IMG/VR virus record: IMGVR_UViG_3300028886_000061
Coordinates: 9,635-73,634 of that record
DNA from: a virus
Lineage: Duplodnaviria; Heunggongvirae; Uroviricota; Caudoviricetes
DNA length: 64,000 bases
Strand: one strand, 5' to 3'
Shown: positions 15,006 to 58,617 of the stretch, piece after piece
How positions within the stretch are numbered: the stretch's first letter is position 1
Layout: each line of letters starts with the position of its first letter
The notes under the pieces: model-generated
Told to the model about the DNA's origin: nothing
The model's input: only the letters and a program-made list of their open reading frames with translations
Database searches by the model: none
Program-made: the position numbers and the translations under genes

Positions 15006-15018
15006 CACAACTATAACA

Positions 15019-17697: not shown

Positions 17698-17715
17698 AAA
17701 TAAACTTTATTGACT

Positions 17716-39813: not shown

Positions 39814-39839
39814 ATTTATACAAACAAAACTAACACATA

Positions 39840-40382
39840 ATGGACGAAACACAAGATATTAGAATAGAATATAATGGAGATATTATCAAAGCATACGCCG
39901 GGAATATTTGTCTTTGGGATGTTATTGGTGATCCCGAAGAGCCGGTGATTTATAACCAAGCTCCATCAAAGATAGACCTTCCTATACTTCCAATTCATTA
40001 TAATGATATGAATACAAGAGAGTTATATAAATCATATCAAAAGATATTGGAGATCATTGAACGATTTGATAAACAAAAAACAATGAACAAGCGAGCTCCA
40101 AATTATCACGATAGGTGGTCAATGGATGATTTACGTAGTTACTGTCAAGTATGGTTGGACGATGTCAGATTTCGTCAGGATGGTAAAAATCGCTGGTGGT
40201 TACGGGATCGTATAAAATACTTTCTTAAGGGCCAATTGAAACAACGTAAATTGTGGTTACATGCATTCGGTACCATCTGTTATGATATGTGTCAACGATT
40301 GGATGCTATCGATGGCGGTAACGAAGCACAAAATGCCGATCAGATGGCACCAAGACAACATCGCATTGGATTTAATAATTAA
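39840..40382 (+). CDS. hypothetical protein (180 aa)
   Basis: ORF. Confidence 0.4.
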   Translation: MDETQDIRIEYNGDIIKAYAGNICLWDVIGDPEEPVIYNQAPSKIDLPILPIHYNDMNTRELYKSYQKILEIIERFDKQKTMNKRAPNYHDRWSMDDLRSYCQVWLDDVRFRQDGKNRWWLRDRIKYFLKGQLKQRKLWLHAFGTICYDMCQRLDAIDGGNEAQNADQMAPRQHRIGFNN

Positions 40383-40393: not shown

Positions 40394-41194
40394 ATGGTAT
40401 ACAACCCAAAAGAAGATAAAGTCAAAGTAACCATCGAACCGGTGGATGGTGCTTGGAGACGAGCATTGAATCTTGCTCGTCGTACTGTAGGTAAGAAGGC
40501 ACTGGACAAGGATCCGTCGAATGGATGGAGACATAAGATTCTCCTGCAGGAACACTCCCCTATCCGTGCCGTTGAATATATTATACACTTCGAGCAGATC
40601 CGTCAATGGGTCACAACCCATCTGGTTCGTCACTGGCTTGGATTTATCCCAATCGGACATAGTCAACGTCAGGACCGTCGTGTTCTTAATTGTGAACGGG
40701 ATGAGTTGCCGCAGGGTTCCTTGAACGATATGGACGTGCTAATCAATGCACAATCTCTCATCAATGTATCCCGCAAGCGTCTTTGTTCAACTGCATCCCC
40801 CGAAACCCGTCATGCTTGGTCACTGGTTAAGAAAGAGATGATGAAACTCGATCCCGAGATGGCTCGTGCTATGGTACCGGAATGTGTATATCGTGGTTTC
40901 TGTCCATATTTTGATAAATGCTGTGGATACTGTAAAACAGATGCATATAAGAAACAACTTGCAGATTATCGTGCTCAATTTTCAGTTGAGGAACCTCGTA
41001 CTGACAATAACCCACCAATGAAACTCGTCGAAAAAGATATGCCAGTAGACGGTGCTGGTCCAATATGTATTCCTCCGGAAGATTTGCAAAAGATGGAGGA
41101 TAGTATGTACGACGAAAATGGATGGATGGATTTAGGTAATGGACTTAAAAGAGATCGCAAAGGTCGTATCGCCGGTGGATTAAAACTTAAGTGA
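40394..41194 (+). CDS. ThyX-family (flavin-dependent thymidylate synthase-like) protein, divergent, with Cys-rich C-terminal extension
   Basis: HSPIRAVEYIIHFEQIRQW...LVRHW...SQR aligns to ThyX HxSxxEH...ARQWFRHR...SxRY; NAQSLIN...R...A..ETRHAW aligns to second ThyX block; RHR motif reads RHW. Confidence 0.5.
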   Translation: MVYNPKEDKVKVTIEPVDGAWRRALNLARRTVGKKALDKDPSNGWRHKILLQEHSPIRAVEYIIHFEQIRQWVTTHLVRHWLGFIPIGHSQRQDRRVLNCERDELPQGSLNDMDVLINAQSLINVSRKRLCSTASPETRHAWSLVKKEMMKLDPEMARAMVPECVYRGFCPYFDKCCGYCKTDAYKKQLADYRAQFSVEEPRTDNNPPMKLVEKDMPVDGAGPICIPPEDLQKMEDSMYDENGWMDLGNGLKRDRKGRIAGGLKLK

Positions 41195-41224
41195 TATGAA
41201 AAAGCAATAAAAAATAGAGAAAAA

Positions 41225-42607
41225 ATGAAAAAAGTTGCATTTATTGGTGCTGGATACGTAGGCCTTGTAAATGGTATCGGTATCGCTTCGTACTATAATG
41301 ATGTATGGATTGTAGAAAGTAATAAGGAGAAACTTAATATTCTCTTATCAGGTGAACTCCCAATATACGAAGATGGTTTAATTGAGACAGCTCGTAACTG
41401 TACCAAACGTTTACATTTCACTGACAGTATTGAGGAGGCTGTTGCAAATGCAGATTATGTATTTATCACTGTGGGTACCCCGATGGCCGAAGATGGTAGT
41501 TCGAATCTCGACGCAGTATTTGCAGTTGCTGAAGTCCTTGGACAGGCTATCGCCAAAGTCAGGACCAAAGATATCACGGTGGTTATGAAATCAACCGTCC
41601 CGGTAGGCACCACCAGAAAAGTCCAGAGAATTATCAATAAGGAAATTGAAAAATATCAAACCGAGTTTTTGAGCAAAATCGATAATATATGTGAGCACCC
41701 GGAGGTATTCAAAACACCTATCCTACATCTTACTGTTCATATGGTGGATAATCCGGAGTTCCTTAAAGAAGGAACAGCAATACAGGACTTCATTAATCCG
41801 AATAGAATTGTCATTGGTACGGATACGGAAGAGGCTGCTGAAGAGATGCGAAAATTATACTGTGGTGTTTATGGTGAATCAGTAGAGAATATCATTTATA
41901 ATTGTGGTATCGAATCAGCCGAGATGATCAAATATGCATCCAATTCAATGTTGGCTATGCGTATCTCATTCGCCAATATGATCGCCCATTTCTGCGAAAA
42001 GGTAGGTGCTAATGTGGATGATGTGATGACCGGTGTGGGATTGGATAAACGCATCGGACCGGAGTTCCTCAATGCCGGCTGTGGATATGGTGGTAGTTGC
42101 TTCCCAAAGGATGTCCAGTCTCTTATCCACCAGATGGCAAGTAAACAATGTCATTGTGGATTACTCCAGGAAACAGAGATTATGAATCATCAATCAAAGC
42201 AGCATGTGGTTGATAAAATCCTCGAATATAAACCTAAAGTGATTGCCCTTTGGGGAGCCACATTTAAACCTAATTCGGATGATCTCCGTGAATCACCTGC
42301 TTTGTATATTATGGATAATTTACCTGAAAGTATCCAGTTTAAAGTATATGATCCGCTTGGAGCAGATAATTTGAGGAAGTGGATTAAGGATACCGGTAAA
42401 ACAAATATCGAGATACCTGGTAATCTAATAGATACCCTTAAAGATGCTGATATGGTTGTTAACCATCACGTGTATTCTCCGGCCCTTCACACAATCAATT
42501 CAAATGAAATGAAACATAATATATTTTATGATATCAAAAACCAATTTATACGAGATGTTGAAATCATTAATGAACGCGGATTCGTATATATAGGGGTTGG
42601 TCGATAA
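41225..42607 (+). CDS. UDP-glucose/GDP-mannose 6-dehydrogenase family nucleotide-sugar dehydrogenase
   Basis: N-terminal GAGYVG Rossmann motif and catalytic GYGGSCFPKDV motif. Confidence 0.75.
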   Translation: MKKVAFIGAGYVGLVNGIGIASYYNDVWIVESNKEKLNILLSGELPIYEDGLIETARNCTKRLHFTDSIEEAVANADYVFITVGTPMAEDGSSNLDAVFAVAEVLGQAIAKVRTKDITVVMKSTVPVGTTRKVQRIINKEIEKYQTEFLSKIDNICEHPEVFKTPILHLTVHMVDNPEFLKEGTAIQDFINPNRIVIGTDTEEAAEEMRKLYCGVYGESVENIIYNCGIESAEMIKYASNSMLAMRISFANMIAHFCEKVGANVDDVMTGVGLDKRIGPEFLNAGCGYGGSCFPKDVQSLIHQMASKQCHCGLLQETEIMNHQSKQHVVDKILEYKPKVIALWGATFKPNSDDLRESPALYIMDNLPESIQFKVYDPLGADNLRKWIKDTGKTNIEIPGNLIDTLKDADMVVNHHVYSPALHTINSNEMKHNIFYDIKNQFIRDVEIINERGFVYIGVGR

Positions 42608-42654
42608 GATAAGTAGAAACACGTCCGGAATTTTTGTTAAGTTTCGGGCGTGTT

Positions 42655-42670
42655 CCTTTATATATATTTG
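42655..42670 (+). promoter_or_regulatory. promoter-like box gtgttcctttatatatatttg upstream of 42694
   Basis: Same 16-nt string gtgttcctttatatat recurs at 58103-58118. Confidence 0.4.
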
Positions 42671-42693
42671 AACATAGAAAATAACAATATCCG

Positions 42694-43098
42694 ATGAAAA
42701 AACGAGAACTCCTAAAAGAAATCGCTGACCATATTCTGGTCATCCGAGTTGGGTCCGGTACGTGGGAAATCCGTTCCTGTATCATATTTCCGATGAAGGA
42801 GGGAGATGATTTCCCTAAATACCTCCACATTAATTCACATAACGAGGAAGACTACACCGGCATCTTCAACGGAGAGGTGTATAATCCTACCGGTGGGTTT
42901 GATAGTGCGGATGACCTGGACAGAGCAGCACAGGAGGAATGCATCACCGTGGAAGCACTGCTCGAAAGAATCTGGTCGGATACTGCAAACGAGGACAACT
43001 ATGAATCCGAAAGGGAACGTAACCTGAGATTGGCAGAACGCCTTTGGGATAAATGCGTGGAACCGTGGGATAGATTCGACCTGATAGACCTGAGTTAA
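42694..43098 (+). CDS. hypothetical protein (134 aa)
   Basis: ORF; promoter-like motif 42655-42670. Confidence 0.4.
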   Translation: MKKRELLKEIADHILVIRVGSGTWEIRSCIIFPMKEGDDFPKYLHINSHNEEDYTGIFNGEVYNPTGGFDSADDLDRAAQEECITVEALLERIWSDTANEDNYESERERNLRLAERLWDKCVEPWDRFDLIDLS

Positions 43099-43127
43099 TA
43101 TTTGAGGGTCTTCGGTTATATATAAAC

Positions 43128-43424
43128 ATGAAAGAACAATTAAACTTAAAGACAATGCAACAAGGTAAAACTCAAAACTTCAGCGATATCCTCAACCTTA
43201 TCAGCACGGCCGAGAATACAGGAATAAAAGCCGTATACTTTCGCTGCGTGGAATGGAATAAGGATGCTCGCATGAAATTGTGGTTCAGAATAATCGATAA
43301 CACCAAGATGATATCGTATCGCCAGCAGGATGAGCAGATGGTACGGATGGAAGGTTGCGTTCCGGATTTCCGTTTTACCATTGCTGATATGTTCAAGGAG
43401 TTTGAGTATATTATCGAACATTAG
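43128..43424 (+). CDS. hypothetical protein (98 aa)
   Basis: ORF. Confidence 0.4.
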   Translation: MKEQLNLKTMQQGKTQNFSDILNLISTAENTGIKAVYFRCVEWNKDARMKLWFRIIDNTKMISYRQQDEQMVRMEGCVPDFRFTIADMFKEFEYIIEH

Positions 43425-43446
43425 TATTCATCAATATCTATATAAC

Positions 43447-44211
43447 ATGAGAATTTTTAACACTCCGGTGAGAGTCATCAATAACGATACTCTCGAGACG
43501 TTAGGTACATATGAACCTACCCAGTTGATAATTCGGGAACCCGGTGAAACCGTCTGGGCTGTAACACTTAAACACCGTATTTATATTCTCCTCACTGTCG
43601 CACTGATGCTGATTGGATTTTTCCTCATTATCGGCGTTCAAGGTGGTGAGGTTCACAAGTTGAAACAGGAGATTGCTCACTACGAGGAACTTACCGGTAT
43701 GAACCTTCCATACATCTCCGTAGAGGCACTGGCCGGTAAGTATGCCACATACAAGGGCAAAGTACCCAGCAACAAGGACACCATCTTCAAGTTCATTTGC
43801 GAATCTGGTGCGTGGTATCCGGAAGTAATTATGGCTCAGTTCCAGCTGGAATCCAAGTTAATGACATCCGATGTTGGAAAGAATGCAATCAATGGATTTG
43901 GTATGAAGAAATGTGGTGAAGGTCCACGATCCCGACCCAACCTACAGATCCGAGGAATGGACTACCACGGATACGGAATGTATATGAACTGGTATCACTC
44001 AGTACTGGATAGAATCCTGTGGGATTTGTGGGTATTCTCCGATAAACCGGCAACCAGGGAAGCTTATCTCAAAGGTCTGATAGATAAACGATATGCAGAG
44101 GATCCGGATTATATCTCCAAGATCAGTCAAATCGCCAATCAATGGGCTGAAAAAACATCCAACTATATCGATCCGGATCATCCGAAGGATACAGTGAAGA
44201 GTAAACCGTGA
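43447..44211 (+). CDS. endolysin, FlgJ-type N-acetylglucosaminidase domain with N-terminal TM/signal-anchor
   Basis: IMAQFQLESKLMTS...NGFGMK matches glucosaminidase AQAxLESGWG..NNLFGIK; hydrophobic helix residues about 35-55; ORF open from 43330. Confidence 0.55.
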   Translation: MRIFNTPVRVINNDTLETLGTYEPTQLIIREPGETVWAVTLKHRIYILLTVALMLIGFFLIIGVQGGEVHKLKQEIAHYEELTGMNLPYISVEALAGKYATYKGKVPSNKDTIFKFICESGAWYPEVIMAQFQLESKLMTSDVGKNAINGFGMKKCGEGPRSRPNLQIRGMDYHGYGMYMNWYHSVLDRILWDLWVFSDKPATREAYLKGLIDKRYAEDPDYISKISQIANQWAEKTSNYIDPDHPKDTVKSKP

Positions 44212-44305
44212 TTTTTGCGCGATAATTCGCTCCCTAATAAAAGATCGCACCGTCCCTATGTAGTTATACAGGGGACGGTGCGATCGTTGTTTATAGAGGA
44301 GATTT
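44209..44305. repeat. structured intergenic repeat element, copy C, between convergent stop codons
   Basis: 5' box tttttgcgcgataattcgctccctaataaaa; perfect 14-bp stem gatcgcaccgtccc/gggacggtgcgatc; loop tatgtagttatacag. Confidence 0.75.
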
Positions 44306-45043
44306 TTAAGCTGCGTCTTCGACTGTCCAACCGGACGGTATCTTACTTGTACTACTTCTCCAAGTTGATTCTGATATAGATGGGTTTTTAACGAATGTAC
44401 CTGTTTGGGCAACATAGGCAAGCAAATTAGTAGTACATCTTGATGCTGATATATCAGCTGCCAGACATTTAATTGCATAACACATATTAGCCAGTGTTGT
44501 AGCGGGTAATTCAGGTGCAGAGGTCAATGACTTGCAACCATAGAACATATTGGTATAACAACTATTGACCAGTGTTCTTGCCGGTAAAATAAGGTTACCT
44601 GCACTTTTAAGTTTGGTTTTACCAAAGAAATATGAACTAAAATTATAACCAGTTGCGTCCTTTTCAAACGATGTCTTAACCAGTGAGTTGATATTACCGC
44701 CGATATCATAGTCGGAATCCGATTTTTCGGTCCAGTTTGGTTTCAATGGTGTATCCTGGTCACTTGCCACACGGAAATATGTCTTTCCTGTTGGTAGGTC
44801 GCCAGCGACCGTATCCGTCCAATTCTCACCATCGGTACTCATCTGCAAGCCTGATGTATCTGCCAGAGTTACAGGACCTCGAACGTCGATGTAGAATGGT
44901 ATTGGATAGCTTGGAGTCGGAGGCACTCCCGGCTTCAACGATATACCACTCTCTCCACGAATAGCGGATAATGTATTATACTCCAGTGTTGGGAGTATGG
45001 ATGCTGCCTGTTGGGCATTCTCAAACATTCTTATATGTTTCAT
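44306..45043 (-). CDS. putative receptor-binding / fibre protein with BspA-type leucine-rich repeats
   Basis: Repeats LPARTLVNSCYTNMF / LPATTLANMCY similar to those in the 59746 gene; track start 45082 is TTG, ATG at 45043. Confidence 0.45.
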   Translation of the reverse strand: MKHIRMFENAQQAASILPTLEYNTLSAIRGESGISLKPGVPPTPSYPIPFYIDVRGPVTLADTSGLQMSTDGENWTDTVAGDLPTGKTYFRVASDQDTPLKPNWTEKSDSDYDIGGNINSLVKTSFEKDATGYNFSSYFFGKTKLKSAGNLILPARTLVNSCYTNMFYGCKSLTSAPELPATTLANMCYAIKCLAADISASRCTTNLLAYVAQTGTFVKNPSISESTWRSSTSKIPSGWTVEDAA

Positions 45044-45074
45044 ATTCTTATTTTTTTTTGTGATATTCAATGAT

Positions 45075-45410
45075 TTAAGCAATCAATATATCATCATCTT
45101 GTGAATCATCTTCTGTCTTTGGCTCCTTTGCTGCCTCGATGGTACCAAGTTTTTTGAAGAATGTTTTGATAACATAGTCATACATCAGGTATTGGACAAA
45201 GAAGCTACAAATGATTGTTTCTTTACTTTCGTGCCATACAAATATAAATAGAACACCAGCCACGATGGCCACGATAGTACTAATAAGACGTTTCCAACCG
45301 GTGGATAGATCCTTCGGTATAGTCGTTATAATGATATATGTGATGATATTGCACAGGAATATATAAATGAGATTAATATAACTCAAAATATCAGAAAACA
45401 TTACATCCAT
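45075..45410 (-). CDS. small membrane protein, holin-like (2 TM, acidic C-terminus)
   Basis: Two hydrophobic helices then EAAKEPKTEDDSQDDD tail. Confidence 0.3.
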   Translation of the reverse strand: MDVMFSDILSYINLIYIFLCNIITYIIITTIPKDLSTGWKRLISTIVAIVAGVLFIFVWHESKETIICSFFVQYLMYDYVIKTFFKKLGTIEAAKEPKTEDDSQDDDILIA

Positions 45411-45679
45411 TGCTCATAATATTTTTTTATAGGTATACTGATATTTGATACCTTACGATCTGATGTGATTGTACGTATATTTAGTTTAATATCATCAAGC
45501 ATCTCCATTCCGATAAGCTCAATGGTTTTCTTTATGGCATCTTGAAGGTGAGTGTTTGTGGTAAGTAGTTCATCTGTTGTTTTCTTCGTAACACATATTA
45601 TTGGATACTCATTATAAGCAACCATCTTGTCACTATAGCGTAATATTGGTGCCACTATATTTATGGTATATGTATTCAT
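45401..45679 (-). CDS. hypothetical protein (92 aa)
   Basis: ORF in structural operon. Confidence 0.4.
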   Translation of the reverse strand: MNTYTINIVAPILRYSDKMVAYNEYPIICVTKKTTDELLTTNTHLQDAIKKTIELIGMEMLDDIKLNIRTITSDRKVSNISIPIKKYYEQWM

Positions 45680-45689
45680 TTCAGTTTAT

Positions 45690-48608
45690 TTATTTCCCTA
45701 TAATAAAGGCCGACTCGAAGTTATGTTGTAAGACATTCTCACCCTTTTTGTAGGTTATATATATACTATAATAACCAGGTTTGAGTTCAACTGATTCCGG
45801 TGGTGTTACAAAGAAGCTCTGCATACCACCAGGGACTTCATTACCAAAGTCTCCCTCATTTTTACCATCACCATAGTAACGTAATTCCATAAGACGGGAA
45901 TCAAATTCCTTCTGTGTGGTTTGATTACGGAATCTCCAGTTGGATATTTCGAGATCTTTACTATGGCCCAATACAGGTTCCATATATATAAGTTCATTCG
46001 GTTGAATTGGCTCGTCGGTATCTTTGAATAACTCAATCGTATGCATATACGGATGGAACCTCATACTAATCACATATGGGTCTTGGAATTTATCATTATC
46101 TTTCGAATCAAATGTATAATCGGGTCTTACCAATCCTTCAATGCTATTGATAAATTGTTTGTCATACTCCCTGCATACACCCACAATACGAACACCCTTT
46201 TGATGTATATTTGGATTTAATGGCCAGGGTGATGCCAACCACATAAACTCCTTAATATTTGATGATAACTCATCGAGAAATCTTCGGGTATCATCCGGAT
46301 TTGATGGATCACCAATACCATTAAAATTTATCACAACATCTCTATCCTCCATATGAAATACCACAGGTTTATTCTCCGGAAGTATTGTAAAGATAACAGT
46401 TTCATTAAACCCAACAGATCCACCCTTGAATGGTTTGATAAACATAGAATGTTCCTTGTATGGAGTATACTCGTGGTCTGAACGTTCCGTTCCGAGATGT
46501 GTACCGCCTTCAGTAGGATCATTATACAAATCAGTTGCAGACGTCATCTGGAATGGATTAAACCACACTTTAAAATTATCAGGATCAGTAAGTTCCATAT
46601 GTTGTCTTGTAGATTCATCCAGCATCAATACCTTATATAAATCAATATGGTTTGATATATTATCCTCTACCAACACGTGAGCCTTGCTTACCCATACATT
46701 ACCTGAAGATGTATAGAATTCAAATTCCACATCATAATCTCCTTCATCCTGGAATGCGAGATCGAATCCAAAATTGAATACGTATTGAGTTGCCCTGAAT
46801 CCTTCGCGTTCAAAGCCTGTAATATTTTCATATAGTGTTGGATAAATCACACTATGGCTTATAATTGATCCCTCATTATCTCCACTTTTCCATACCACGC
46901 GTTCCATAAGGATACAATCAATGGCATCTGTAGCCAGCATAAGACTCTCTGCATCTTCTCCCTGGAGATCAAATACTGTTTCAAAATGAACCACACCGGC
47001 CATACAATCATATGGGTATTTGGTGAACTCACCGGTTGTATAGAATCCTGGTTTATTTATCGGATCTTCTGGATCGCCTGGATCGATCTCCTCATGTATA
47101 GTACCATCATATCCAAATACACTACTATTATCTGTTGCCATAAATAAGGTATTCGAGTATGCATGATTACGATGTTTCTGAATCTTAACCCGTTTATCGT
47201 ATGTCAATTCGAATGGTTTACCGAACTCGATTTTTTCATATTTATCTATCCGGTTTGCGTGCAGAACCTTTATAGCATTGGTGAATACCCAATGTTCCAC
47301 AGTGGAATGAATAAGGTCCATATGTATTGGCATAAAGTATGTGGAATAGAAGTTACCCAGCAGTGACATCTTAAGACAGAGGTCGAGGTACTGCCAACGC
47401 GCATTGATATGGGTCAATCTTGGATTGGGTTCTTGGTAAATATAATGAGGACGTACTGAACGGGTGCATGTTTGAAATATTAATGTATGGAGATTCAGGT
47501 CTTCGTCGGCAGAAGGAACCCTAACCATTTCACCGGGCTGTGAGAAATCAAGAACCTCCTCCATCTTATATGTATCATCGCTTTGTTTCACATAACGAAT
47601 ATACACATAGTTACCCACACATACTCCATCAATACCCATCTCTGAATATGGCGTGCGATTATAATCCTCTCCTTCTATATCATCTTCGGTCATTCTCTCT
47701 AAATCGGATGGATAGAAGAAATCAGGATCTACACCTAATACCCTACCATTATCCGTTTCGTATTCAACCTCACCATTCTTAAGACGAATATAGTTATAAA
47801 GAGCCATATAAAGCCCAATGCAGGTGGTCTTGGAGTTGTTAAGAAATTGTTTGGTAAACTCCACATCAAGTTCCCTGTTGAGATTTTCAAGGAAGTAATC
47901 GCCGAGATTCTCGTGATGGCGCTTCCATAGTTCCTCGATTCTTACCAAATCACCCCATTCAAACCAAGCCAAGCTATTCTGTAGGCTATTATACGATCCT
48001 TTATTGGCCACGATATCCCAATAGTTCATCAGGAGCTCCTTGTACTTACGATTAAGAGTGATATTATCGTTTGATTCTTCGTGAACATCAACATCATAGA
48101 TGGCTTTTTGGATAGACTCCGGTATACGTATATCAAAGTTATCCATCTCATTCTTAAGTAGTTCGTTATCAATATAAAAATCTGCACCTACTTCGAATTC
48201 AAAACGTCCATCTTTATCGATAAGATAGAATTTATCGCGGATCTCACCGGCATCTTTTGAGTTAGCCATAATATATATCATATGGACGTAGAAGTTATTA
48301 TACTTCACACCAATTGATGTATATTTGGTAACCTTAAGATTAGCAAGGTCCATATAGATTTTTGAGTTAATAACCTCAGCCTGATTACCGGGGATATCCG
48401 GATCATTCAACGCCGGAATATTTTGATTTAGTTTAAGAAGGGAGAATACTGGAGAATCCAGATGGGCGTACACCGTGGAGTAATTCGAAATGAAACATAC
48501 TTTACGTACATAGTTCAAGTTAACGGATTGGCCGTTCTCAAACCAAAATACGTATGGTGGGTTACCATTAAATATTCTACCATCTTTTAGTTCTATAAAA
48601 TCAATCAT
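45690..48608 (-). CDS. large virion structural protein (972 aa), putative baseplate/tail component
   Basis: Operon position downstream of gp25-like and putative J-like genes. Confidence 0.4.
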   Translation of the reverse strand: MIDFIELKDGRIFNGNPPYVFWFENGQSVNLNYVRKVCFISNYSTVYAHLDSPVFSLLKLNQNIPALNDPDIPGNQAEVINSKIYMDLANLKVTKYTSIGVKYNNFYVHMIYIMANSKDAGEIRDKFYLIDKDGRFEFEVGADFYIDNELLKNEMDNFDIRIPESIQKAIYDVDVHEESNDNITLNRKYKELLMNYWDIVANKGSYNSLQNSLAWFEWGDLVRIEELWKRHHENLGDYFLENLNRELDVEFTKQFLNNSKTTCIGLYMALYNYIRLKNGEVEYETDNGRVLGVDPDFFYPSDLERMTEDDIEGEDYNRTPYSEMGIDGVCVGNYVYIRYVKQSDDTYKMEEVLDFSQPGEMVRVPSADEDLNLHTLIFQTCTRSVRPHYIYQEPNPRLTHINARWQYLDLCLKMSLLGNFYSTYFMPIHMDLIHSTVEHWVFTNAIKVLHANRIDKYEKIEFGKPFELTYDKRVKIQKHRNHAYSNTLFMATDNSSVFGYDGTIHEEIDPGDPEDPINKPGFYTTGEFTKYPYDCMAGVVHFETVFDLQGEDAESLMLATDAIDCILMERVVWKSGDNEGSIISHSVIYPTLYENITGFEREGFRATQYVFNFGFDLAFQDEGDYDVEFEFYTSSGNVWVSKAHVLVEDNISNHIDLYKVLMLDESTRQHMELTDPDNFKVWFNPFQMTSATDLYNDPTEGGTHLGTERSDHEYTPYKEHSMFIKPFKGGSVGFNETVIFTILPENKPVVFHMEDRDVVINFNGIGDPSNPDDTRRFLDELSSNIKEFMWLASPWPLNPNIHQKGVRIVGVCREYDKQFINSIEGLVRPDYTFDSKDNDKFQDPYVISMRFHPYMHTIELFKDTDEPIQPNELIYMEPVLGHSKDLEISNWRFRNQTTQKEFDSRLMELRYYGDGKNEGDFGNEVPGGMQSFFVTPPESVELKPGYYSIYITYKKGENVLQHNFESAFIIGK

Positions 48609-48611
48609 ACC

Positions 48612-50300: not shown

Positions 50301-50321
50301 ATTGTTATATATAATTTTTCT

Positions 50322-50684
50322 TTAGTATTCTACGGCACCTTGGGTGACCTTGTATGTTTTATGATATGAACTTCCGTTTGGATCGTGCAATTCGATGGTG
50401 AGTAATAAAATATCATTCATTGAGCCGACAAGGAAATCCACATGTACTGTCACTTCCCAATTGAATAACTCGACATTATCAACAATGTAGTCGCGTACAT
50501 CATTTTCGATAGTTGTATTACCAATATTTGGGTTATATAGATATACGTCAAAACGCGTGCCAAAATTATAGTCACCCAGTACCTCACCATTACGGGTATC
50601 CAACAGAATCTCTATCTGTTGCATGATAAGGTCTGCTTCCTGATCGTATATAATATCACCTTCTATGATACTGAAATCAACCAT
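50322..50684 (-). CDS. baseplate wedge protein, gp25/GPW family
   Basis: IEILLDTRNGEVLGDYNFGTRFDVYLYNP matches gp25-like signature. Confidence 0.6.
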   Translation of the reverse strand: MVDFSIIEGDIIYDQEADLIMQQIEILLDTRNGEVLGDYNFGTRFDVYLYNPNIGNTTIENDVRDYIVDNVELFNWEVTVHVDFLVGSMNDILLLTIELHDPNGSSYHKTYKVTQGAVEY

Positions 50685-52519
50685 TATCTTTCATATGTAT
50701 ATTTACCGAGGGTTACCATTTCAAACTTATCGTTAAGAATATAATATGTTCCTCCATTCACTTCGCCGGGAAGAAGATTACCATCAATGGTAAAGATCAC
50801 ATCCCTGGAAGTACGGCCTGTTTCTATGAAGTCAACGCCCTCAATGCGAATATAGAATATATCAACCTTTGACTTATATTTGTTAAGATTAATACCGATA
50901 TTTTCCGATACCTCCGGATGGACGACTATATTGGATACACTCTCACTACGGTAGAACACCGGGTGAATGATATTAGCCTTGTAATCCTCCGGTCTGGTTA
51001 CCTGAATAATTTTCTTTTGTATTTTATTGACCACACTTACATTATACTCAAACATATTTACATAATCTATTTTTATACGTTTCCCATCCGATACATTTGT
51101 CGGTACCAAAAAACGATAATTATCCTGTATCAAAGGAATCTCATTGGTGATGATGGATATAATAGGGAAGTTCGTTTCCCTAATTTCTTCTATATTATTA
51201 AGATTTGTATCATATACCTCGACACTACCAACCATTATCAATCCCTCACCATACCAATTCCAATCGTGTCCAATCTCGGAACGATCAAAGAAGTACGAGG
51301 AACCACTTTTCAACAGTTTTGTATGTATTGCAAAGATATCCTCTTTATCCCTTATAACCAATTCAACTATAATTCTGTTCTCACGTGGAACCAACCTATT
51401 CTCATCGATCATACCGGTTTGTGGGTCTGGTTCAATCACCTCACCATTTTCATCCACATACTCACCCATCTCATTTACTTTCCAAAGGCCATAAGTTTCA
51501 CCTAAATAAAGATCGATATCATCTTGATACACTTCATTGAATAATATGGATATTCGGGCATCCCCATCGAACTCGAGTTTTGCATGCAGGTAATCTGATG
51601 GTTTGGCCTCGAATGGTATGCTTACGGTTCCACAGTCGTACTCGCTCATTCGATGATACTCACCATTCAATCGAATGGTATAACGGAAAGCCTCATTAAA
51701 CTCAAGTTCATCCGTCTGTTTCTCTTTATATATACCGTAATCATTATAGTAGCGTTTATAGTATGAGTATTTATTGGTATTCTCATTTTTCACCCTATAC
51801 ACATACACATCCTTGTAGTTTCTATCCAGATAATGGTACATATCCATATTAGGGCTTGCATACTCATTATACGAAGGTACATGCATTACCGGTTCCAACT
51901 GGATATGTAATACAGCACCTGTGTTATTCGTATAAGGTAACTCACCACACACATTGACCCTAAACGGTTTCCAAATATCATCATATGTGATTGCAACTGG
52001 ATCAAGAATAGCCATCTCAACACACATATTGTAATCCATATTCTTATACTTTACCTTCTCCGGTGTGGCAAGTGCTGATCGTGGATCAAACATATAACTA
52101 CCCAATATCACCTTGGTACCGGCTATATATATGTAAGCAGTCATTATATAACGTATACCGGAAAGGGATAATTCATTATCATCACTAAAGGTGTTATCAA
52201 AGAACGACTCAATAGAATAACGGGGGAAGTATACCACAATTTGACGTTGATCTATACGTTGTGGTATATAATAGTTAGTGTGATATCTTTCATCAATACT
52301 CCAGGTGTTAAGATTACATACCATATTATATATCTCGGACCCGTTGAAATTATCAATCACTTTATTGTTACGGAAGAACTGAACACAATCCCTATGTTCC
52401 GTATTTGTTGCATAATGATAGAATCCGTTGGTGATTTGGGTAAATATATCCCTAACCTCCACCATATAACGGAGTTGCTTATCATCATGCACTATATTAA
52501 GTTGAGCTCTTTGTTTCAT
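50684..52519 (-). CDS. virion structural protein (about 610 aa), putative baseplate hub/spike region
   Basis: Upstream of gp25-like gene; track start 52564 is TTG, first ATG at 52519. Confidence 0.35.
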   Translation of the reverse strand: MKQRAQLNIVHDDKQLRYMVEVRDIFTQITNGFYHYATNTEHRDCVQFFRNNKVIDNFNGSEIYNMVCNLNTWSIDERYHTNYYIPQRIDQRQIVVYFPRYSIESFFDNTFSDDNELSLSGIRYIMTAYIYIAGTKVILGSYMFDPRSALATPEKVKYKNMDYNMCVEMAILDPVAITYDDIWKPFRVNVCGELPYTNNTGAVLHIQLEPVMHVPSYNEYASPNMDMYHYLDRNYKDVYVYRVKNENTNKYSYYKRYYNDYGIYKEKQTDELEFNEAFRYTIRLNGEYHRMSEYDCGTVSIPFEAKPSDYLHAKLEFDGDARISILFNEVYQDDIDLYLGETYGLWKVNEMGEYVDENGEVIEPDPQTGMIDENRLVPRENRIIVELVIRDKEDIFAIHTKLLKSGSSYFFDRSEIGHDWNWYGEGLIMVGSVEVYDTNLNNIEEIRETNFPIISIITNEIPLIQDNYRFLVPTNVSDGKRIKIDYVNMFEYNVSVVNKIQKKIIQVTRPEDYKANIIHPVFYRSESVSNIVVHPEVSENIGINLNKYKSKVDIFYIRIEGVDFIETGRTSRDVIFTIDGNLLPGEVNGGTYYILNDKFEMVTLGKYTYER

Positions 52520-52686
52520 ATAATTGACGAATTTATCGTTATAAATATAATAAATATACGACAAACACTTTCTTATTAATCACTGATAATATTATTAGTC
52601 ATTCAAAACACCTTGTGAATTTTCATATATTATACCAAGAGGCATCAAACAGACGTCCTTTGTACCTCAAAATTAAATATTGAAAT

Positions 52687-53367
52687 ATGATATTAGATTA
52701 CGAATATTCGCGAGACAAAAAACAGTTTAGTATCTCGTTTATCCGTGCGGATGGTAATAAGGAGGTTATGCACTTCGATAATATTCAAAAGTTCCTCACA
52801 TATTACTACACTCCGGGAGGACGATTCAACACCTGGAATGGAGCCAAGGCAGATACTAAATATACCTACAATCCAAGCAAGTTTGACCTTAAAGAGTTTA
52901 TATATAATCTTGCACCAGAGATCCAGGAGAAATTGGATGGTAAGGCATTCCCAAAATTATATACATTCGATATTGAGACCCGGTTGAAGTCGGGTCCCCA
53001 CGGTGAGGTCGGACAAGGTGACTTTACCGAAGCAACAGTCGCTGATGAACCTATCCATACTATCTCGTTGGTATCCCCGAATATGAATAGTGTTGTTATG
53101 GGTGATAAACCTTTAAATGACGCACAAATTCAATGGGTTAGAGACCAGTTCTATGCATACCTTGATAGTATTCCCTTCTATAGAACCCTTAACCTTCCAA
53201 GACCTGAGTTCAAATATGTGTATTTTGATAGTGAGGAAAGGATGTTACGTTTCTTCCTCGAGAATGTGGTAGCCAAGGTGCCAATCCTTGCCGGTTGGAA
53301 CTCCATCGGATACGACTGGTGTTATATCACATCCCGTATTAAGAACTTCTATTCAAACATCGGGTAG
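52687..53367 (+). CDS. DNA polymerase family B (T4 gp43-like), N-terminal 3'-5' exonuclease segment (Exo I, Exo II)
   Basis: Exo I FDIET, Exo II GWNSIGYDWCYITSRIKNF aligning to RB69 GWNVESFAIPYVYNRIKNIF; ends GGG-TAG. Confidence 0.75.
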   Translation: MILDYEYSRDKKQFSISFIRADGNKEVMHFDNIQKFLTYYYTPGGRFNTWNGAKADTKYTYNPSKFDLKEFIYNLAPEIQEKLDGKAFPKLYTFDIETRLKSGPHGEVGQGDFTEATVADEPIHTISLVSPNMNSVVMGDKPLNDAQIQWVRDQFYAYLDSIPFYRTLNLPRPEFKYVYFDSEERMLRFFLENVVAKVPILAGWNSIGYDWCYITSRIKNFYSNIG

Positions 53368-53423
53368 CCGATGGTTCTGCAACTCATACAGTATCATATA
53401 AGAACTTCACCAATATGAAAGGT
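53358..53423 (+). other. candidate recoding/bypass site in polB: take-off GGG-UAG in hairpin, 56-nt gap, re-entry at GGU
   Basis: Hairpin catcgg-gtag-ccgatg (53358-53373) encloses GGG (53362-64) and UAG (53365-67); joining at ggt 53421-23 gives ungapped alignment to RB69 gp43. Confidence 0.4.
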
Positions 53424-55652
53424 GAAACCATCAAGATGCCACATCCTACCCATACACTTATCTTGGATATGATGGATGTAATCGAAAATGAGGATACTCA
53501 AGTACTTCCTACCAAGGAGTCAATGAACCTTGATTACATCTCACACGAGGCTTTGGGTGCCAATAAAGTGGAATACGAAGGCAACCTCGAGGAATTGTAC
53601 ATCAAAGACTTTGCTAAATATGTCTTTTACAACTTGATCGATAGTATTTTGGTTCAGTTAAACGACAAGAAGTTCAAGTCGATGGACCATATATATATGT
53701 ATTCACTTTATGCAAAGGAACGCATCGGTCAGTGTTTTAGTAAGATTGCCTTGACTGAATCCCTTATTCTTAAACACTTCCGTACAACCAACACCAAGAT
53801 TGTATGGGAACAGAAAGAACAAGTGGAACGCGGTCGATTGGTTGGTGCATATGTAAAGATGCCGGTTGCTGGTCTTTGGGAGTTGGTTTGTTGTAATGAC
53901 TTTGCCGGACTGTATCCAACCACCGGTATTGTAACCAACATCTCATTCGATAACTTTGTTGGTACCTTCTACGATGAGGAGAAACTGGCTCCATACAGAC
54001 AGGATCCGGCACGTTACATTGTGGTGTGTGGTAATGTGTATCGTAATAAGGGTTCACTGGCTAAACCAGAACTCGGAGAGTTCGTTGCCCAGTACCTTGA
54101 TGAGGAAGCATTGGCACCATACCGTAAGGATAAGAACTACTTTGTATCCATCAACGGACACGTATATAAAAACGATAAAGACTATACCTTGAAACTGGTA
54201 TGGAATAACCTTCGTTTGGAACGTAAAAAGAGCAAGTATCTGTCCAAGAAACTGGATGCTCATATTGCAATGGATATCAACCATATACTCCGTTGTTATA
54301 CAGACCACCCAGAACTGGGTATCAAAGAACTTAATCACGATATCCTCAATAAATATGATGAGAGTGAGATCGAACACCTTAAAGCAATGGGATACGATTT
54401 CAAGAGTGGTGAGGATCTTGTGGGTATGAGCGTGGATGATCTGAAGGTACTCCAACGCATTATCAAAACAGAGATTACATATCTTGCCAACCTTGAACAG
54501 GCCATCAAACTTATGATGAATAGTATATATGGAGGAACCTCGCACCAGGCATTCTATTGGTTCAATATTGCACTGGCCAATGATGTTACCGGTGAGGGAC
54601 GTAATCTCACCCATCATATGGAACGTCACCTTAATGAGTTCTGGAGAGATGCTTGGCAAACCAATCCGGATCTTAAGAAGATTCAGGATGAACTGGGTAT
54701 CAAACTTAAACCCAAGGAGGTTATTGACCAAATCCTTAAAGACTCACACGATAACTCATTGGTAACGTGCGTGTATGGTGATACTGACTCCTTATATCTA
54801 TCATATAAGGACCTCATTGATACCATTGAGGGATCCGAGAAGTTTGACCTCCACGACAAACTGAAGATCATTCTTAAGATCAACACGGAGTTCCTTGACA
54901 AACACAACAAGGAACACCTCCGGGATTACTTCCTTTCGCGTAATGTTCGTCCGAATACTGCGGATCTGGAAGACTTCGAATTGGAGACGGTCAATAAACG
55001 AGGTGTATGGCTCCACGAAACCAAGAAACGTTACGGACAAATCCTGCTATGGAAAGAGGGTAAGTTCTTTGATATGGATGACCTCCCGATTAAGGTTAAG
55101 GGCCTTGAGATTATCAAATCGTCTTATCCAACCCTGTCCCGTAAGCAACTCAAACAAATGCTTCGCTTTATGCTGGAGTATGATGGTAAGTATCTTACCC
55201 AGGAGTTGAACCTATTGTCACAAAAGTTCCTCAAAGAATTCGAAACTGCAGATATTGACCTTGTCAGTGGTAACCTGAAGGTGAACGGATATGCGCAGAA
55301 GATTATCCAGGATACTAACCCCAATGGATTTGAAACCGTTAAGGGTGCATCGTTTAATATCAAAGCACTTGCAATGTATAACTGGTTGAATAACGTACAT
55401 CATTTTGGTTCGGAACCAATATATGGAGGTAAACTTAAATACTACACAATAAAGGGTTCCAGTGAAAAGAATGGTGATATATACTTCGCATATGAAGGTA
55501 CTAAATATCCAAAATGGGCAGACCAATATGCTCCATCGGATCGCAAACGAATGTATAAGAAATTCGTTCTTGACCCCATCAACCGTATTCTTGGTAGTGC
55601 TGGTATGCCTCTCCTGCGTGTCGATGGAAGTATTCAGATTGCATTGTTCTAA
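53415..55652 (+). CDS. DNA polymerase family B (T4 gp43-like), polymerase segment
   Basis: LDYISHEALG..YNLIDSILV aligns to RB69 LDYISEFELN..YNIIDVYRV; motif B KLMMNSIYG; motif C YGDTDS; homology begins at 53421. Confidence 0.75.
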   Translation: MKGETIKMPHPTHTLILDMMDVIENEDTQVLPTKESMNLDYISHEALGANKVEYEGNLEELYIKDFAKYVFYNLIDSILVQLNDKKFKSMDHIYMYSLYAKERIGQCFSKIALTESLILKHFRTTNTKIVWEQKEQVERGRLVGAYVKMPVAGLWELVCCNDFAGLYPTTGIVTNISFDNFVGTFYDEEKLAPYRQDPARYIVVCGNVYRNKGSLAKPELGEFVAQYLDEEALAPYRKDKNYFVSINGHVYKNDKDYTLKLVWNNLRLERKKSKYLSKKLDAHIAMDINHILRCYTDHPELGIKELNHDILNKYDESEIEHLKAMGYDFKSGEDLVGMSVDDLKVLQRIIKTEITYLANLEQAIKLMMNSIYGGTSHQAFYWFNIALANDVTGEGRNLTHHMERHLNEFWRDAWQTNPDLKKIQDELGIKLKPKEVIDQILKDSHDNSLVTCVYGDTDSLYLSYKDLIDTIEGSEKFDLHDKLKIILKINTEFLDKHNKEHLRDYFLSRNVRPNTADLEDFELETVNKRGVWLHETKKRYGQILLWKEGKFFDMDDLPIKVKGLEIIKSSYPTLSRKQLKQMLRFMLEYDGKYLTQELNLLSQKFLKEFETADIDLVSGNLKVNGYAQKIIQDTNPNGFETVKGASFNIKALAMYNWLNNVHHFGSEPIYGGKLKYYTIKGSSEKNGDIYFAYEGTKYPKWADQYAPSDRKRMYKKFVLDPINRILGSAGMPLLRVDGSIQIALF

Positions 55653-55721
55653 TAATTTATGGGGCTCGCTTTTAGAACCCCTTTTAAATTTTATATATTA
55701 TTTTGAAATAAATACATATCA

Positions 55722-56720
55722 ATGAAGGAATATTCATACACAATCCATTCTTCCTCCGGTAATGAAACTGCCTTTGTACTTAAGGGTAATCACATCACCA
55801 TTATATATCACGATATCCTTAATTCGATCGCTCATTTCGTAATGGAACATTATGATAAACCCGAGCATGATAATGCATTGATACTTGTCAATACACTCCC
55901 GTCCGATATTATGCTGCAGGAGTTGAAGCTTAACGAATGTTCGATTAAGATATTCTATAATCTTGAACAGTATGTTATGGGTAAGGTTAATGAGGGTACA
56001 AAGAGTTACTTCGAAAATGTATTGTTCGAATATATGAGAGCCCATAATTTCGATGAGATATGGGATTTCCTGATGGAAGACTATGAGTTTATGCCAAATG
56101 ATCTCATTAAAAAATTCAGATTTGTACCTCCACGATATTCTCACTACTTTGATGCAGTTAGAGAAACCATTAAGGCTCGCCGCGAAGCTATTAATCCACG
56201 ATATGATCTATTCTTTTCGGGTCTCCACGATACAGATACCCGTCTGTGGACCTTGGCTAATATCCAATCCAACAAATATACTACCCAGGGAATCAAATTT
56301 ATTACATCATCTGGTTATAACAATGTGAATAACTACGACTTACAATCTATGTGTAAATTTGCACTTGACTACCCTCACTATTCCCTTACTGATCAGACCC
56401 AAACCACAACCAGGGTGTACGATATGGTGATGTGTGGTAACTGTGTTATTGGTCATTATAATCCAAAATTTATCAATTACTTTGAAGGTATCATCATTCC
56501 GGTGCAAGGCGACAATCAAACCGTGTTTGCCAATAACGTAAAAGATGTATGTCATAGTGATAAACCATATTATAATGGACATGAGATATACAAGGAATAT
56601 ACCTATACGGATGAAGCATATGATGCATTCCGTAAGAAGTTCATTCAAAAATATTTTGATTTAACAGGTATCAATGCATCTGCATATGCAGGACTACCTT
56701 TATTTAGTGCCAAAAATTAA
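55722..56720 (+). CDS. putative GT-B fold glycosyltransferase
   Basis: C-terminal RVYDMVMCGNCVIG matches GT-B hxxEAMACGxPVI helix and T4 beta-glucosyltransferase RVWETMASDAVMLI. Confidence 0.35.
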   Translation: MKEYSYTIHSSSGNETAFVLKGNHITIIYHDILNSIAHFVMEHYDKPEHDNALILVNTLPSDIMLQELKLNECSIKIFYNLEQYVMGKVNEGTKSYFENVLFEYMRAHNFDEIWDFLMEDYEFMPNDLIKKFRFVPPRYSHYFDAVRETIKARREAINPRYDLFFSGLHDTDTRLWTLANIQSNKYTTQGIKFITSSGYNNVNNYDLQSMCKFALDYPHYSLTDQTQTTTRVYDMVMCGNCVIGHYNPKFINYFEGIIIPVQGDNQTVFANNVKDVCHSDKPYYNGHEIYKEYTYTDEAYDAFRKKFIQKYFDLTGINASAYAGLPLFSAKN

Positions 56721-56749
56721 TATATTTAATAAATAAACATAATAAGATT

Positions 56750-57334
56750 ATGCAACTTACAGGTAAACAAATCGTTGAAGAAGGTCTTGTTACTAACTAT
56801 GTTCCCGAAGCAGTCCAGCAGCAAGGTATGGATGTACGCCTGATGAAAGTACGCCGGTTTGGCCATCGAGCAGAATCATGTCGTGATATTGATGGTCCTA
56901 AGTGGGAAAAGAACTTTCATCTTGACGAAATCGGGTTCATTCCAGCACAGGGTAAAACCAAACTTCCCAAGTCAGAGGAAATCATCCCCCAGGAATATAC
57001 TCGCGATGGATATACTTTCACCGGCTGGATTCTCGATCCCGGTTACTATGAGGTGATCTTCGATGAAGGTTGCAAGATGCCAAATAATCGGGTTATGGTT
57101 CTCATCTCCCGTTCCAGTGCAGTTCGTTGTGGCTCTTTCATTGAGTGTGGCCAATTCGATGCCGGTTTCAACACAGACCACATGGGTTGCTTCTTTAAGG
57201 TTGAAGAGCGTATCGCTATCGAAGAACACGCCCGTATTGCACAGCTCCGCTTCACAACTACAGAAGAGGTTGAAAGTGACAATATGTATAACGGCCAGTG
57301 GCAGAACGATAAACAAAGAAAAACACAGGCATAA
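56750..57334 (+). CDS. dCTP deaminase / dUTPase-superfamily protein
   Basis: MDVRLMKVRRF, LISRSSAVRCGS, FDAGFNTDHMGCFF align with E. coli Dcd VDVRLGNKFRTF, LDGRSSLARLGL, IDPGWSGCIVLEF. Confidence 0.55.
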   Translation: MQLTGKQIVEEGLVTNYVPEAVQQQGMDVRLMKVRRFGHRAESCRDIDGPKWEKNFHLDEIGFIPAQGKTKLPKSEEIIPQEYTRDGYTFTGWILDPGYYEVIFDEGCKMPNNRVMVLISRSSAVRCGSFIECGQFDAGFNTDHMGCFFKVEERIAIEEHARIAQLRFTTTEEVESDNMYNGQWQNDKQRKTQA

Positions 57335-58104
57335 TGCTCAAATACGCAAATACACAAGTGGTCTTCCAGGAATTTCCAGGGGAGACCACTTTCGCTATAA
57401 ACTTAACAAATTGCCCACATCACTGTGATGGATGTCACTCCCCTCATTTATGGAAGGATGAAGGTACACATCTTACAGTCGAGGAACTTTCAAGATTGAT
57501 TGCTCCCATAGAAAAGAACATCACCTGTATTGGTTTTATGGGTGGAGATGGTGATTTCAACGAACTCAACGATCTGGTCGGTGTGGCCCGGTGTATGTAT
57601 CCAACTCTCAAAATTGGTTGGTATAGTGGTAATGATGCTTGGTCGGATGAAATGATGCATCTATTTGACTACGTCAAATTCGGTTCCTATAAAAAGGAAC
57701 TCGGTGGATTGGATAGTCCAACCACAAACCAGATGATGTTTAAGCATATCTACAATGGTATAGGTCCCCAGGATAGTACTTTTGATATGTGGCTTAATAT
57801 CACAAAGTGTTTTTGGAGGGATACTTCCGAACCCGATAAAAAATACATATTGAGTATTACATATCATAAATTGGCTGTGATTCGAAAAATAATGCTTGAA
57901 TCATGTGTGTTCTCTATGATTGGTCTTACAACAGATGGATATGAAACCAAGGATGAAATGCCATCCGAGGAAGATTGGGTTAATGGTACTATTATGCTAC
58001 TCAATGGTCAAATTCCGCCAAAAGAATGTTATATACGAAAATATCGTAGAAAAATTGGAGAAAAAGAATGGGAGGAGTGTGAAGGAGAAGTTAAGATTCT
58101 GTAG
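57334..58104 (+). CDS. nrdG: anaerobic RNR activating enzyme NrdG (radical SAM) with C-terminal extension
   Basis: NCPHHCDGCHSP cluster matching GCxHxCxGCxN; IGFMGGDG SAM-binding motif. Confidence 0.7.
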   Translation: MLKYANTQVVFQEFPGETTFAINLTNCPHHCDGCHSPHLWKDEGTHLTVEELSRLIAPIEKNITCIGFMGGDGDFNELNDLVGVARCMYPTLKIGWYSGNDAWSDEMMHLFDYVKFGSYKKELGGLDSPTTNQMMFKHIYNGIGPQDSTFDMWLNITKCFWRDTSEPDKKYILSITYHKLAVIRKIMLESCVFSMIGLTTDGYETKDEMPSEEDWVNGTIMLLNGQIPPKECYIRKYRRKIGEKEWEECEGEVKIL

Positions 58105-58407: not shown

Positions 58408-58411
58408 CAAT

Positions 58412-58606: not shown

Positions 58607-58617
58607 ATTAACGACAT

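Follow-up and report, generated by a model that had tools for sequence, protein, structure and literature searches.

A Cys4 mini-ThyX-like protein and an orphan GT-B-fold glycosyltransferase-like protein of a large tailed phage possibly belong to separate nucleotide and glycan modules

A 64-kb stretch of tailed-phage DNA (IMG/VR record IMGVR_UViG_3300028886_000061, positions 9,635 to 73,634; hereafter the window, numbered from its first letter) encodes a divergent ThyX-like protein and an orphan GT-B-fold protein, together with a UDP-sugar 6-dehydrogenase (UGDH) and several genes of nucleotide metabolism. These genes had been proposed in a first-pass annotation to form one route to sugar-modified bases. 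The ThyX fold, the GT-B fold, UGDH and the reductase activase NrdG of that proposal were all recovered, and Bacillus phage SP-15 offers a precedent, but the links that would make them a pathway were not. The likeliest of the readings considered, adopted here tentatively, is that of two unrelated sets, one for anaerobic dTTP supply and the other for a glycan on a non-DNA acceptor. The reading is built on folds, motifs, genomic contexts and the loss of a deaminase glutamate, from which we infer all substrates and products, the metal and the acceptor. The genes of the two sets are the following.

40394-41194, plus strand: mini-ThyX-like protein of 266 amino acids (aa), with a ThyX core of ~160 aa, a four-cysteine (Cys4) segment and a 70-aa C-terminal extension
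56750-57334, plus strand: DCD-fold dUTPase-like protein, 194 aa (PF22769, 39.9 bits against a cut-off of 27)
57334-58104, plus strand: NrdG, anaerobic ribonucleotide reductase activase, an N-terminal 137 aa followed by a C-terminal extension of ~120 aa (TIGR02826, 139.9 bits against a cut-off of 151.7)
20242-23988, plus strand: NrdD, anaerobic ribonucleotide reductase with a LAGLIDADG intein (Pfam NRDD, 287.8 bits; ATP-cone, Intein_splicing and LAGLIDADG_3)
36571-36930, plus strand: MazG-like nucleotide pyrophosphohydrolase (Pfam MazG, 32 bits; phrog_229, 87 bits)
2305-2874, plus strand: thymidylate-kinase-like P-loop kinase (Pfam AAA_28; phrog_2107 'thymidylate kinase', E 2.5e-13)
28958-29512, plus strand: second thymidylate-kinase-like P-loop kinase (Pfam AAA_28; phrog_2107, E 3.4e-18)
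41225-42607, plus strand: UDP-glucose/UDP-sugar 6-dehydrogenase, 460 aa (three Pfam UDPG_MGDP_dh domains, PF03721, PF00984 and PF03720)
55722-56720, plus strand: orphan GT-B-fold glycosyltransferase-like protein, 332 aa, isoelectric point (pI) 5.7
17710-19293, plus strand: GT2 glycosyltransferase fused to a SPASM-like radical S-adenosylmethionine (SAM) domain (Pfam Glycos_transf_2 and Radical_SAM)

The product of 40394-41194 was found to have the ThyX fold. Its Pfam ThyX match (27.2 bits against a cut-off of 24.8) was confined to the C-terminal 50 aa, and PDB sequence searches with the protein and with its family profile matched no solved ThyX and returned only noise. An APS-reductase 'CCG' match (E 0.54) was part of this noise and was not counted as evidence for an iron-sulfur (Fe-S) cluster. 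The relationship to ThyX was visible in profile-profile alignment with hhalign. The family covered only 33 columns when aligned with the single T. maritima sequence, and a profile of nine canonical ThyX, in which the T. maritima sequence was verified against PDB entry 1KQ4, was needed. With this profile the alignment extended over 149 columns with an E-value of 1.4e-4. The equivalents of T. maritima residues R28, R78, H79, S88, R90, L150-P151, R174 and E182 were kept, and the kept positions included most of those that are invariant in nine canonical phage ThyX. Residue H54 of the family was adjacent to T. maritima H53, which itself fell in an alignment gap, and R102 and R129 were aligned to R147 and R174 of T. 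maritima, respectively.

Within the motif RHRxxSxxxxSxR, residues R79, H80, S90 and R92 of the window protein were kept, with a one-residue insertion, and the protein reads R79-H80-W81. This RHW sequence and a Cys-rich segment had been taken to suggest altered chemistry such as pyrimidine hydroxymethylation. Both features were present, but RHW could not be taken as a mark of changed chemistry. Across the family, RH was followed by W, E, K, P or H, and of nine annotated canonical phage ThyX, three had T, Q or K at this position and varied at R165 as well. Residues C131, C164, C170 and C177, located after the core, were invariant in 41 homologues and in homologues of 36-58% identity, including those of Firmicutes phages. 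The protein was basic, with a pI of 8.93, and its SRKRLC motif was invariant. The C-terminal extension (residues ~195-266; 41000-41194), which has at its end a small beta unit modelled with confidence (MYDENGWMDLGNGLKRDRKGRIAGGLKLK), was common to only a few homologues (P0001-3, P0042 and P0056).

The ThyX-like family comprised at least 3,436 proteins among the database hits, most of ~195 aa, on crAss-like, jumbo-phage and Firmicutes-phage contigs and also in phages of Bacteroides, Clostridium and Thomasclavelia. Database annotation of the members was automatic, either as ThyX or as hypothetical, and a literature search for the Cys4 mini-ThyX subfamily found no paper. In crAss-like contigs, the homologues were located among genes for NrdD, NrdG, dUTPase, ligase, an AAA_33 kinase and a dNMP kinase, the last of which was T4-gp1-like and two genes away. 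In the cultured Thomasclavelia phage TR-TP1, the homologue was near NrdG and a dUTPase-like gene. Searches for a second synthase, by tblastn with E. coli ThyA and T. maritima ThyX and with a ThyX hidden Markov model (HMM), found no thymidylate-synthase-like gene besides the ThyX-like one, either in the window or in the complete genome of TR-TP1. No GT-B or other glycosyltransferase gene and no UGDH gene was near the homologues in the crAss-like and TR-TP1 stretches examined, and no glycosyltransferase is listed in the TR-TP1 annotation. The position of the homologues amid NrdD, NrdG, dUTPase and kinase genes therefore favours ordinary nucleotide supply. In five crAss-like contigs with ThyX-like homologues (L007-L011), the translation of the called ThyX-like genes differed from the query protein, and a neighbouring gene (L007 6572-6952) had in-frame stops under genetic code 11; these phages may use stop-codon recoding.

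The protein encoded at 56750-57334 had been described as dCTP-deaminase-like and adjacent to nrdG. The DCD fold and the neighbouring NrdG stood, but the deaminase assignment did not. The best family was NF002598, the DCD-type dUTPase, at 72.4 bits (below the 130-bit equivalog cut-off), while TIGR02274, the dCTP deaminase family, gave 41.2 bits against a cut-off of 92.8. The best structure-sequence match was a dUTPase, PDB 9w59 (E 8.6e-12). In two independent HMMER alignments, the catalytic glutamate of dCTP deaminase (E138 in E. coli) was aligned to Cys147, which was invariant in three orthologues. The product thus scores, by sequence, as a DCD-fold dUTPase and not as a dCTP deaminase. As in the DCD-fold (archaeal-type) dUTPases (NF002598; 9W59), the SRSS..R and DAGF motifs were kept and the deaminase glutamate was absent. 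Compared with 9W59, the window protein has a cysteine at the glutamate position, where 9W59 has a valine, and a long N-terminal insert.

NrdG matched Pfam Fer4_12 and Radical_SAM and contained the motif CPHHCDGC. Its partner NrdD was located 35 kb upstream. The C-terminal extension of NrdG (residues ~140-256; 57750-58104) had no family match, and the orthologues were 257 aa in contig L002, 253 aa in L013 and only 153 aa in L033. QueE was considered for 57334-58104 since QueC is encoded at 4849-5715, and was rejected on the NrdG match (TIGR02826, 140 bits) and the presence of NrdD. The MazG and the two P-loop kinases of the earlier proposal all exist, but outside the span 40394-58104 in which they had been placed, and the GNAT enzyme listed with them had no HMM support, its likely candidate (4380-4811) being without any match. 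Directly after MazG, 36940-37575 (plus strand) encodes a homologue of Tad3, an inhibitor of type I Thoeris defence (Pfam PF25185, 44.8 bits); a longer Tad3-containing protein of 429 aa was found in the relative L018.

The 332-aa product of 55722-56720 was composed of two Rossmann-like domains with an interdomain cleft, and the predicted GT-B fold was thereby confirmed. The window protein had no Pfam, NCBIfam or PHROG match. The segment R231-V-Y-D-M-V-M-C-G-N-C-V-I-G, in which the arginine was invariant, resembled the C-terminal nucleotide-sugar helix (EX7E-like, '(E/D)-A-M-x-x-G-x-P-V-I'). A C-terminal segment had been said to match the GT-B helix shared with T4 beta-glucosyltransferase. No similarity specific to the T4 alpha- or beta-glucosyltransferase was found above that to GT-B proteins in general. 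A DpdA/TGT-like enzyme was also considered for this protein and was rejected by the GT-B fold. An exhaustive profile search for the GT-B family gave 80 clusters among 1.84 billion representatives, and the last database search with the profile returned only four proteins. Multidomain members were fused to GT2 and Methyltransf_24, and one distant member matched Pfam Glyco_trans_1_2. All members examined were acidic, with a pI of 4.7-5.7. The best viral structural neighbours (BFVD) were giant-virus glycan glycosyltransferases, and a DNA alpha-glucosyltransferase ranked only 20th.

In contig L034 (2897-7886), two GT-B paralogues, one of them fused to Methyltransf_24, were located beside genes for a GT2, a radical SAM protein and an FkbM methyltransferase. 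The separate GT2 and radical-SAM genes of this contig were homologous to the two halves of the 17710-19293 fusion, with E-values of 7e-10 and 4e-46. The GT2-radical-SAM protein is therefore probably a partner of the GT-B protein, and the gene group in L034 looks like an uncharacterised phage glycan cluster. Because of the glycan-type fusions and neighbours, the giant-virus structural neighbours and the acidic pI, glycan assembly fits the GT-B protein better than DNA glucosylation.

The identification of UGDH at 41225 was upheld. In addition to the three Pfam domains, TIGR03026 scored 339.3 bits against a cut-off of 189.8, and the catalytic-cysteine motif GGSCFPKD was visible in the translation. 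Equivalog cut-offs, such as the 700 bits of TuaD, were missed, so the sugar specificity is a prediction. The gene starts 30 bp after the ThyX-like gene and is followed by one further feature.

42618-42654, plus strand: hairpin with a 16-bp stem just after the UGDH stop codon (terminator scan; minimum free energy -23.3 kcal/mol, z -3.75)

The hairpin probably ends a transcription unit of the ThyX-like gene and UGDH. A comparable hairpin was present in L018 (z -2.85) and absent in L005, two related jumbo phages in which UGDH adjoins or nearly adjoins the ThyX-like gene. In L018, a relative of 259 kb, a GH16-like gene (EIDIVE motif) was inserted between the two, and an endolysin gene followed UGDH in all three relatives. 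With this insertion and the endolysin neighbour, UGDH looks like part of a carbohydrate and envelope group.

The span 40394-58104 had been treated as one locus and is not a single gene cluster. The ThyX-like/UGDH pair and the GT-B/dUTPase-like pair were 13 kb apart, with structural genes on the opposite strand between them, namely ~9 kb of minus-strand baseplate and tail genes (43999-52564). The DNA polymerase also lies between the pairs, directly upstream of the GT-B gene.

52687-55652, plus strand: family-B DNA polymerase in two open reading frames (ORFs), the exonuclease at 52687-53367 and the polymerase at 53415-55652 (Pfam DNA_pol_B_exo1 and DNA_pol_B; homology to split polymerase pieces of relatives)

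In the proposed dTTP module, NrdD and NrdG would reduce NTPs, the DCD-fold enzyme would hydrolyse dUTP to dUMP without deamination, and the mini-ThyX would convert dUMP to dTMP by ThyX-type flavin and folate chemistry. The invariant Cys4 site of the mini-ThyX may bind a metal, as an Fe-S cluster or zinc, and the two Tmk-like kinases and MazG would finish and police the nucleotide pool. In the proposed glycan module, UGDH would supply UDP-glucuronate, and the GT-B protein and the GT2-radical-SAM protein would together assemble or elaborate a saccharide whose acceptor is not DNA but a protein or an envelope component, for instance a virion protein or a polymer of the host surface.

Several observations weigh against this two-module reading. 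The mini-ThyX missed the thyX equivalog cut-off of TIGR02170 by far (17 bits against 87.9). Tyr91 of canonical ThyX was replaced by Q or E in the family, the helical insert (~47 aa; T. maritima residues 92-146) was absent, and the R147 equivalent, kept in five of six diverse aligned members, was missing in TR-TP1. On these grounds, the mini-ThyX may not be a thymidylate synthase. The GT-B gene was located within a block of polymerase, DCD-fold and NrdG genes in four phage contigs, one of them with an altered gene order, a location that hints at a function in DNA metabolism. In T-even phages, DNA-modifying enzymes sit in such replication and nucleotide blocks. Furthermore, both sugar genes were directly beside a pyrimidine-nucleotide gene (UGDH beside the ThyX-like gene, GT-B beside the dUTPase-like gene), with a chance probability of ~0.04 by a rough post hoc estimate. 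The case of SP-15 shows that a uronic-acid DNA modification can go together with UGDH, glycosyltransferases and a divergent ThyX. The functional assignments in the mini-ThyX and GT-B families are predictions.

A first rival starts from the departures of the mini-ThyX from canonical ThyX and leaves the sugar genes aside. The protein would not be a thymidylate synthase and would catalyse another Fe-S- or flavin-dependent reaction at C5 of a pyrimidine, for example the synthesis of hydroxymethyl-dUMP (hmdUMP), or would act on a polynucleotide, an option raised by its basic character (pI 8.9) and by the SRKRLC motif, which is invariant. The loss of Tyr91 and of the ~47-aa helical subdomain, the gain of four invariant cysteines, the distance from the equivalog cut-off and the failure to match any solved ThyX by sequence are consistent with this view, as is the T4-gp1-like dNMP kinase two genes away in crAss-like contigs, a type of kinase that handles hm-dCMP in T4. 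This rival is judged unlikely, given that most of the invariant residues of canonical ThyX are kept, including the R147 equivalent in all but one of the diverse members, that the neighbourhood is one of ordinary dNTP metabolism, and that TR-TP1 has no other thymidylate-synthase-like gene. A second rival retains the mini-ThyX as an ordinary synthase and lets the GT-B protein, possibly with the GT2-radical-SAM protein and UGDH, decorate a DNA base made by genes outside the window. It draws on the retention of the GT-B gene in the replication and nucleotide block, on the window being 64 kb of a genome of ~200 kb or more, and on QueC (4849-5715), by which the phage has at least one gene of a base-modification type. 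The acidic GT-B family, its fusion and clustering with GT2 and sugar-type methyltransferases and its giant-virus structural neighbours speak for a glycan instead, and no hydroxymethylase, TET/JBP, DNA C5-methyltransferase or DpdA was detectable in the window; DNA glycosylation of this kind is rather improbable.

The original proposal joins all of these genes. The mini-ThyX would be a hydroxymethylase of pyrimidine nucleotides, the GT-B protein would add a sugar derived from UDP-glucuronate to the base after replication, the dUTPase-like enzyme, MazG and the kinases would shape the pool, and the resulting uronic-acid base would block restriction. In its favour, all three of ThyX, GT-B and UGDH are confirmed, UGDH begins 30 bp behind the ThyX-like gene in a unit closed by the hairpin, and the GT-B gene lies between the polymerase and the dUTPase-like gene in several relatives. 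The family has also lost and gained features relative to canonical ThyX in the ways described above, and SP-15 gp130 has been proposed as an hmdUMP synthase (PMC5977210). Set against this, the mini-ThyX occurs in thousands of phage contigs, and the crAss-like and TR-TP1 stretches examined had neither a GT-B nor a UGDH gene in its neighbourhood; family members do not share RHW; neither gp130 nor the glycosyltransferases of SP-15 are specifically homologous to the window families; the relatives of GT-B have glycan-type partners; and the gene pairs are separated by 13 kb with opposite-strand structural genes between them. In addition, the 64 kb yielded no second thymidylate synthase, and no UDP-glucose pyrophosphorylase, dCMP deaminase or TET/JBP either. 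The full pathway is thus considered very improbable. An SP-15-like hypermodified pyrimidine of independent evolutionary origin, made by the Cys4 mini-ThyX as hydroxymethylase and by the GT-B protein attaching glucuronate from the phage UGDH, is likewise met with strong doubt. If it were real, it would make the mini-ThyX the first pyrimidine-nucleotide hydroxymethylase of the flavin/Fe-S type.

The mini-ThyX family is abundant in phages of strict anaerobes and was previously unstudied. If its members are thymidylate synthases, they would represent a minimal version of the enzyme that bears a metal and is perhaps reduced via an Fe-S centre. Otherwise, a pyrimidine modification not yet known may be present in many gut phages, and with more than 3,400 gut-phage members, including crAss-like ones, such chemistry would mean that DNA modification has gone unrecognised on a wide scale in the gut virome. 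The GT-B family is very small and likewise unstudied, and apparently works with the GT2/radical-SAM pair in an uncharacterised phage glycan pathway. The practical message for the claim of sugar on DNA is caution.

A further gene of the window is of a base-modification type.

4849-5715, plus strand: QueC homologue, 7-cyano-7-deazaguanine synthase (Pfam, 144.6 bits; TIGR00364, 141.9 bits against a cut-off of 150.3)

With Pfam and PHROGs, no FolE, QueD, QueE or DpdA was found in the 64 kb, and none was detectable in the 5 kb that lie upstream in L014, a near-identical contig. The lone QueC could reflect a 7-deazaguanine DNA modification encoded elsewhere, or queuosine salvage.

The source of the 64 kb was a large tailed phage of the gut, with the family-B DNA polymerase in two ORFs, gp25-like baseplate genes, inteins in both NrdD and RtcB, and a CCA-adding enzyme. 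It is probably a jumbo phage with a genome of ~200 kb or more and an anaerobic Bacteroidota host. A protein with a type IX secretion system (T9SS) C-terminal sorting domain (Por_Secre_tail) was encoded at 30426-31181 (plus strand), which points to a Bacteroidota host, and was followed by an SPFH/flotillin-like protein of 511 aa (31238-32773, plus strand). Near-identical or syntenic metagenome contigs of 124 kb, 160 kb, 237 kb and 259 kb were found, and near-identical or related contigs included ENA ERZ27256887:k141_2610571 and ERZ27257203:k141_2448289. A megablast search of 40394-48000 against phage records gave no match at the DNA level. Pfam and PHROG searches gave nothing useful for the neighbouring ORFs 39169-40382, 42694-43424 and 58147-59627 or for the unknown neighbours in L018, L002 and L034. 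A scan for sigma-70 promoters gave fewer sites than a shuffled control and was not used.

The core genes at 20242-23988, 12248-14076 and 52687-55652 carried a heavy load of mobile elements. RtcB (12248-14076) was split around its intein, and the family-B polymerase of the relatives L002, L013 and L033 was split at other points or bore inteins. In L013, a DUF7487 homing-endonuclease-like gene was located between the polymerase pieces. In the related 160-kb contig L033, a TnpB/IS605 OrfB (Cas12f-like) gene (14589-15836) was found a few kb downstream of the GT-B gene. The two minus-strand ORFs 2925-3533 and 3584-4282 corresponded to a single gene of 452 aa in the near-identical 124-kb contig (L014 8076-9434), a difference that may reflect a frameshift, a stop codon or an assembly difference. 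The minus-strand gene 59746-63846 encodes a 1,366-aa protein with repeated chitobiase/Fn3-associated modules and a GH2 TIM-barrel glycosidase domain, which by its domains is probably a tail fibre with depolymerase activity.

When the mini-ThyX was compared with ThyX enzymes (PF02511; T. maritima 1O26, PBCV-1 4FZB and M. tuberculosis 2AF6), the core was reduced to ~160 aa, lacking T. maritima residues 92-146 and Tyr91. Residues R80 and R165 of T. maritima ThyX were replaced, both of which also vary in annotated phage ThyX. The mini-ThyX adds one residue in the RHR...S..R motif and four invariant cysteines after the core, and the extra 70-aa tail is a feature of the window copy.

Several glycosyltransferases and methyltransferases are clustered in other viral glycan systems, including that for virion glycosylation in mycobacteriophages. 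Compared with the T4 DNA alpha- and beta-glucosyltransferases (1Y6F and 1C3J), the window GT-B protein showed no sequence similarity, and GT4-type enzymes scored equally well or better. The GT-B family also differed in its acidity and in the fusion of relatives to GT2 or methyltransferase domains, and, in contrast to the T4 system, no ThyA-type hydroxymethylpyrimidine synthase was present in the window.

In the DNA of SP-15, glucose and phosphoglucuronolactone are attached to dihydroxypentyl-uracil (Kropinski et al. 2018, PMC5977210). According to the proposal in the genome paper, the base is made by the products of a gene cluster for UGDH, GalU and glycosyltransferases together with gp130, a divergent ThyX-like protein put forward as an hmdUMP synthase; these gene assignments are hypotheses (PMC5977210). 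Like the source of the window, SP-15 is a jumbo phage with UGDH, GT-B-type glycosyltransferases and a highly divergent ThyX-like protein, which in SP-15 is encoded among the replication genes, and the two UGDH proteins were 34.9% identical. SP-15 carries a pair of ThyX-like genes, a dCMP deaminase and a contiguous cluster of 10 sugar genes (UGDH, GalU, two glycosyltransferases, a TagF-like enzyme and phosphomannomutase), whereas the 64-kb window has one ThyX-like gene, one GT-B gene and UGDH, all dispersed, and the other SP-15 enzymes were not detected in it. The SP-15 proteins gp130, gp149, gp152 and gp153, the last three being glycosyltransferases, had no specific similarity to the window families. 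The parallel in gene content is real, and the evidence for linkage of the window genes is weak.

Unlike the genes of viral glycan clusters, those of the window are dispersed (17710, 41225 and 55722), and the GT-B gene is in the polymerase/NrdG block, not near structural genes. The likeness to viral clusters of several glycosyltransferases and methyltransferases, such as those for giant-virus fibril glycans, lies in the partners of the GT-B family, whose members are fused or adjacent to GT2, FkbM/Methyltransf_21, Methyltransf_24 and radical SAM.

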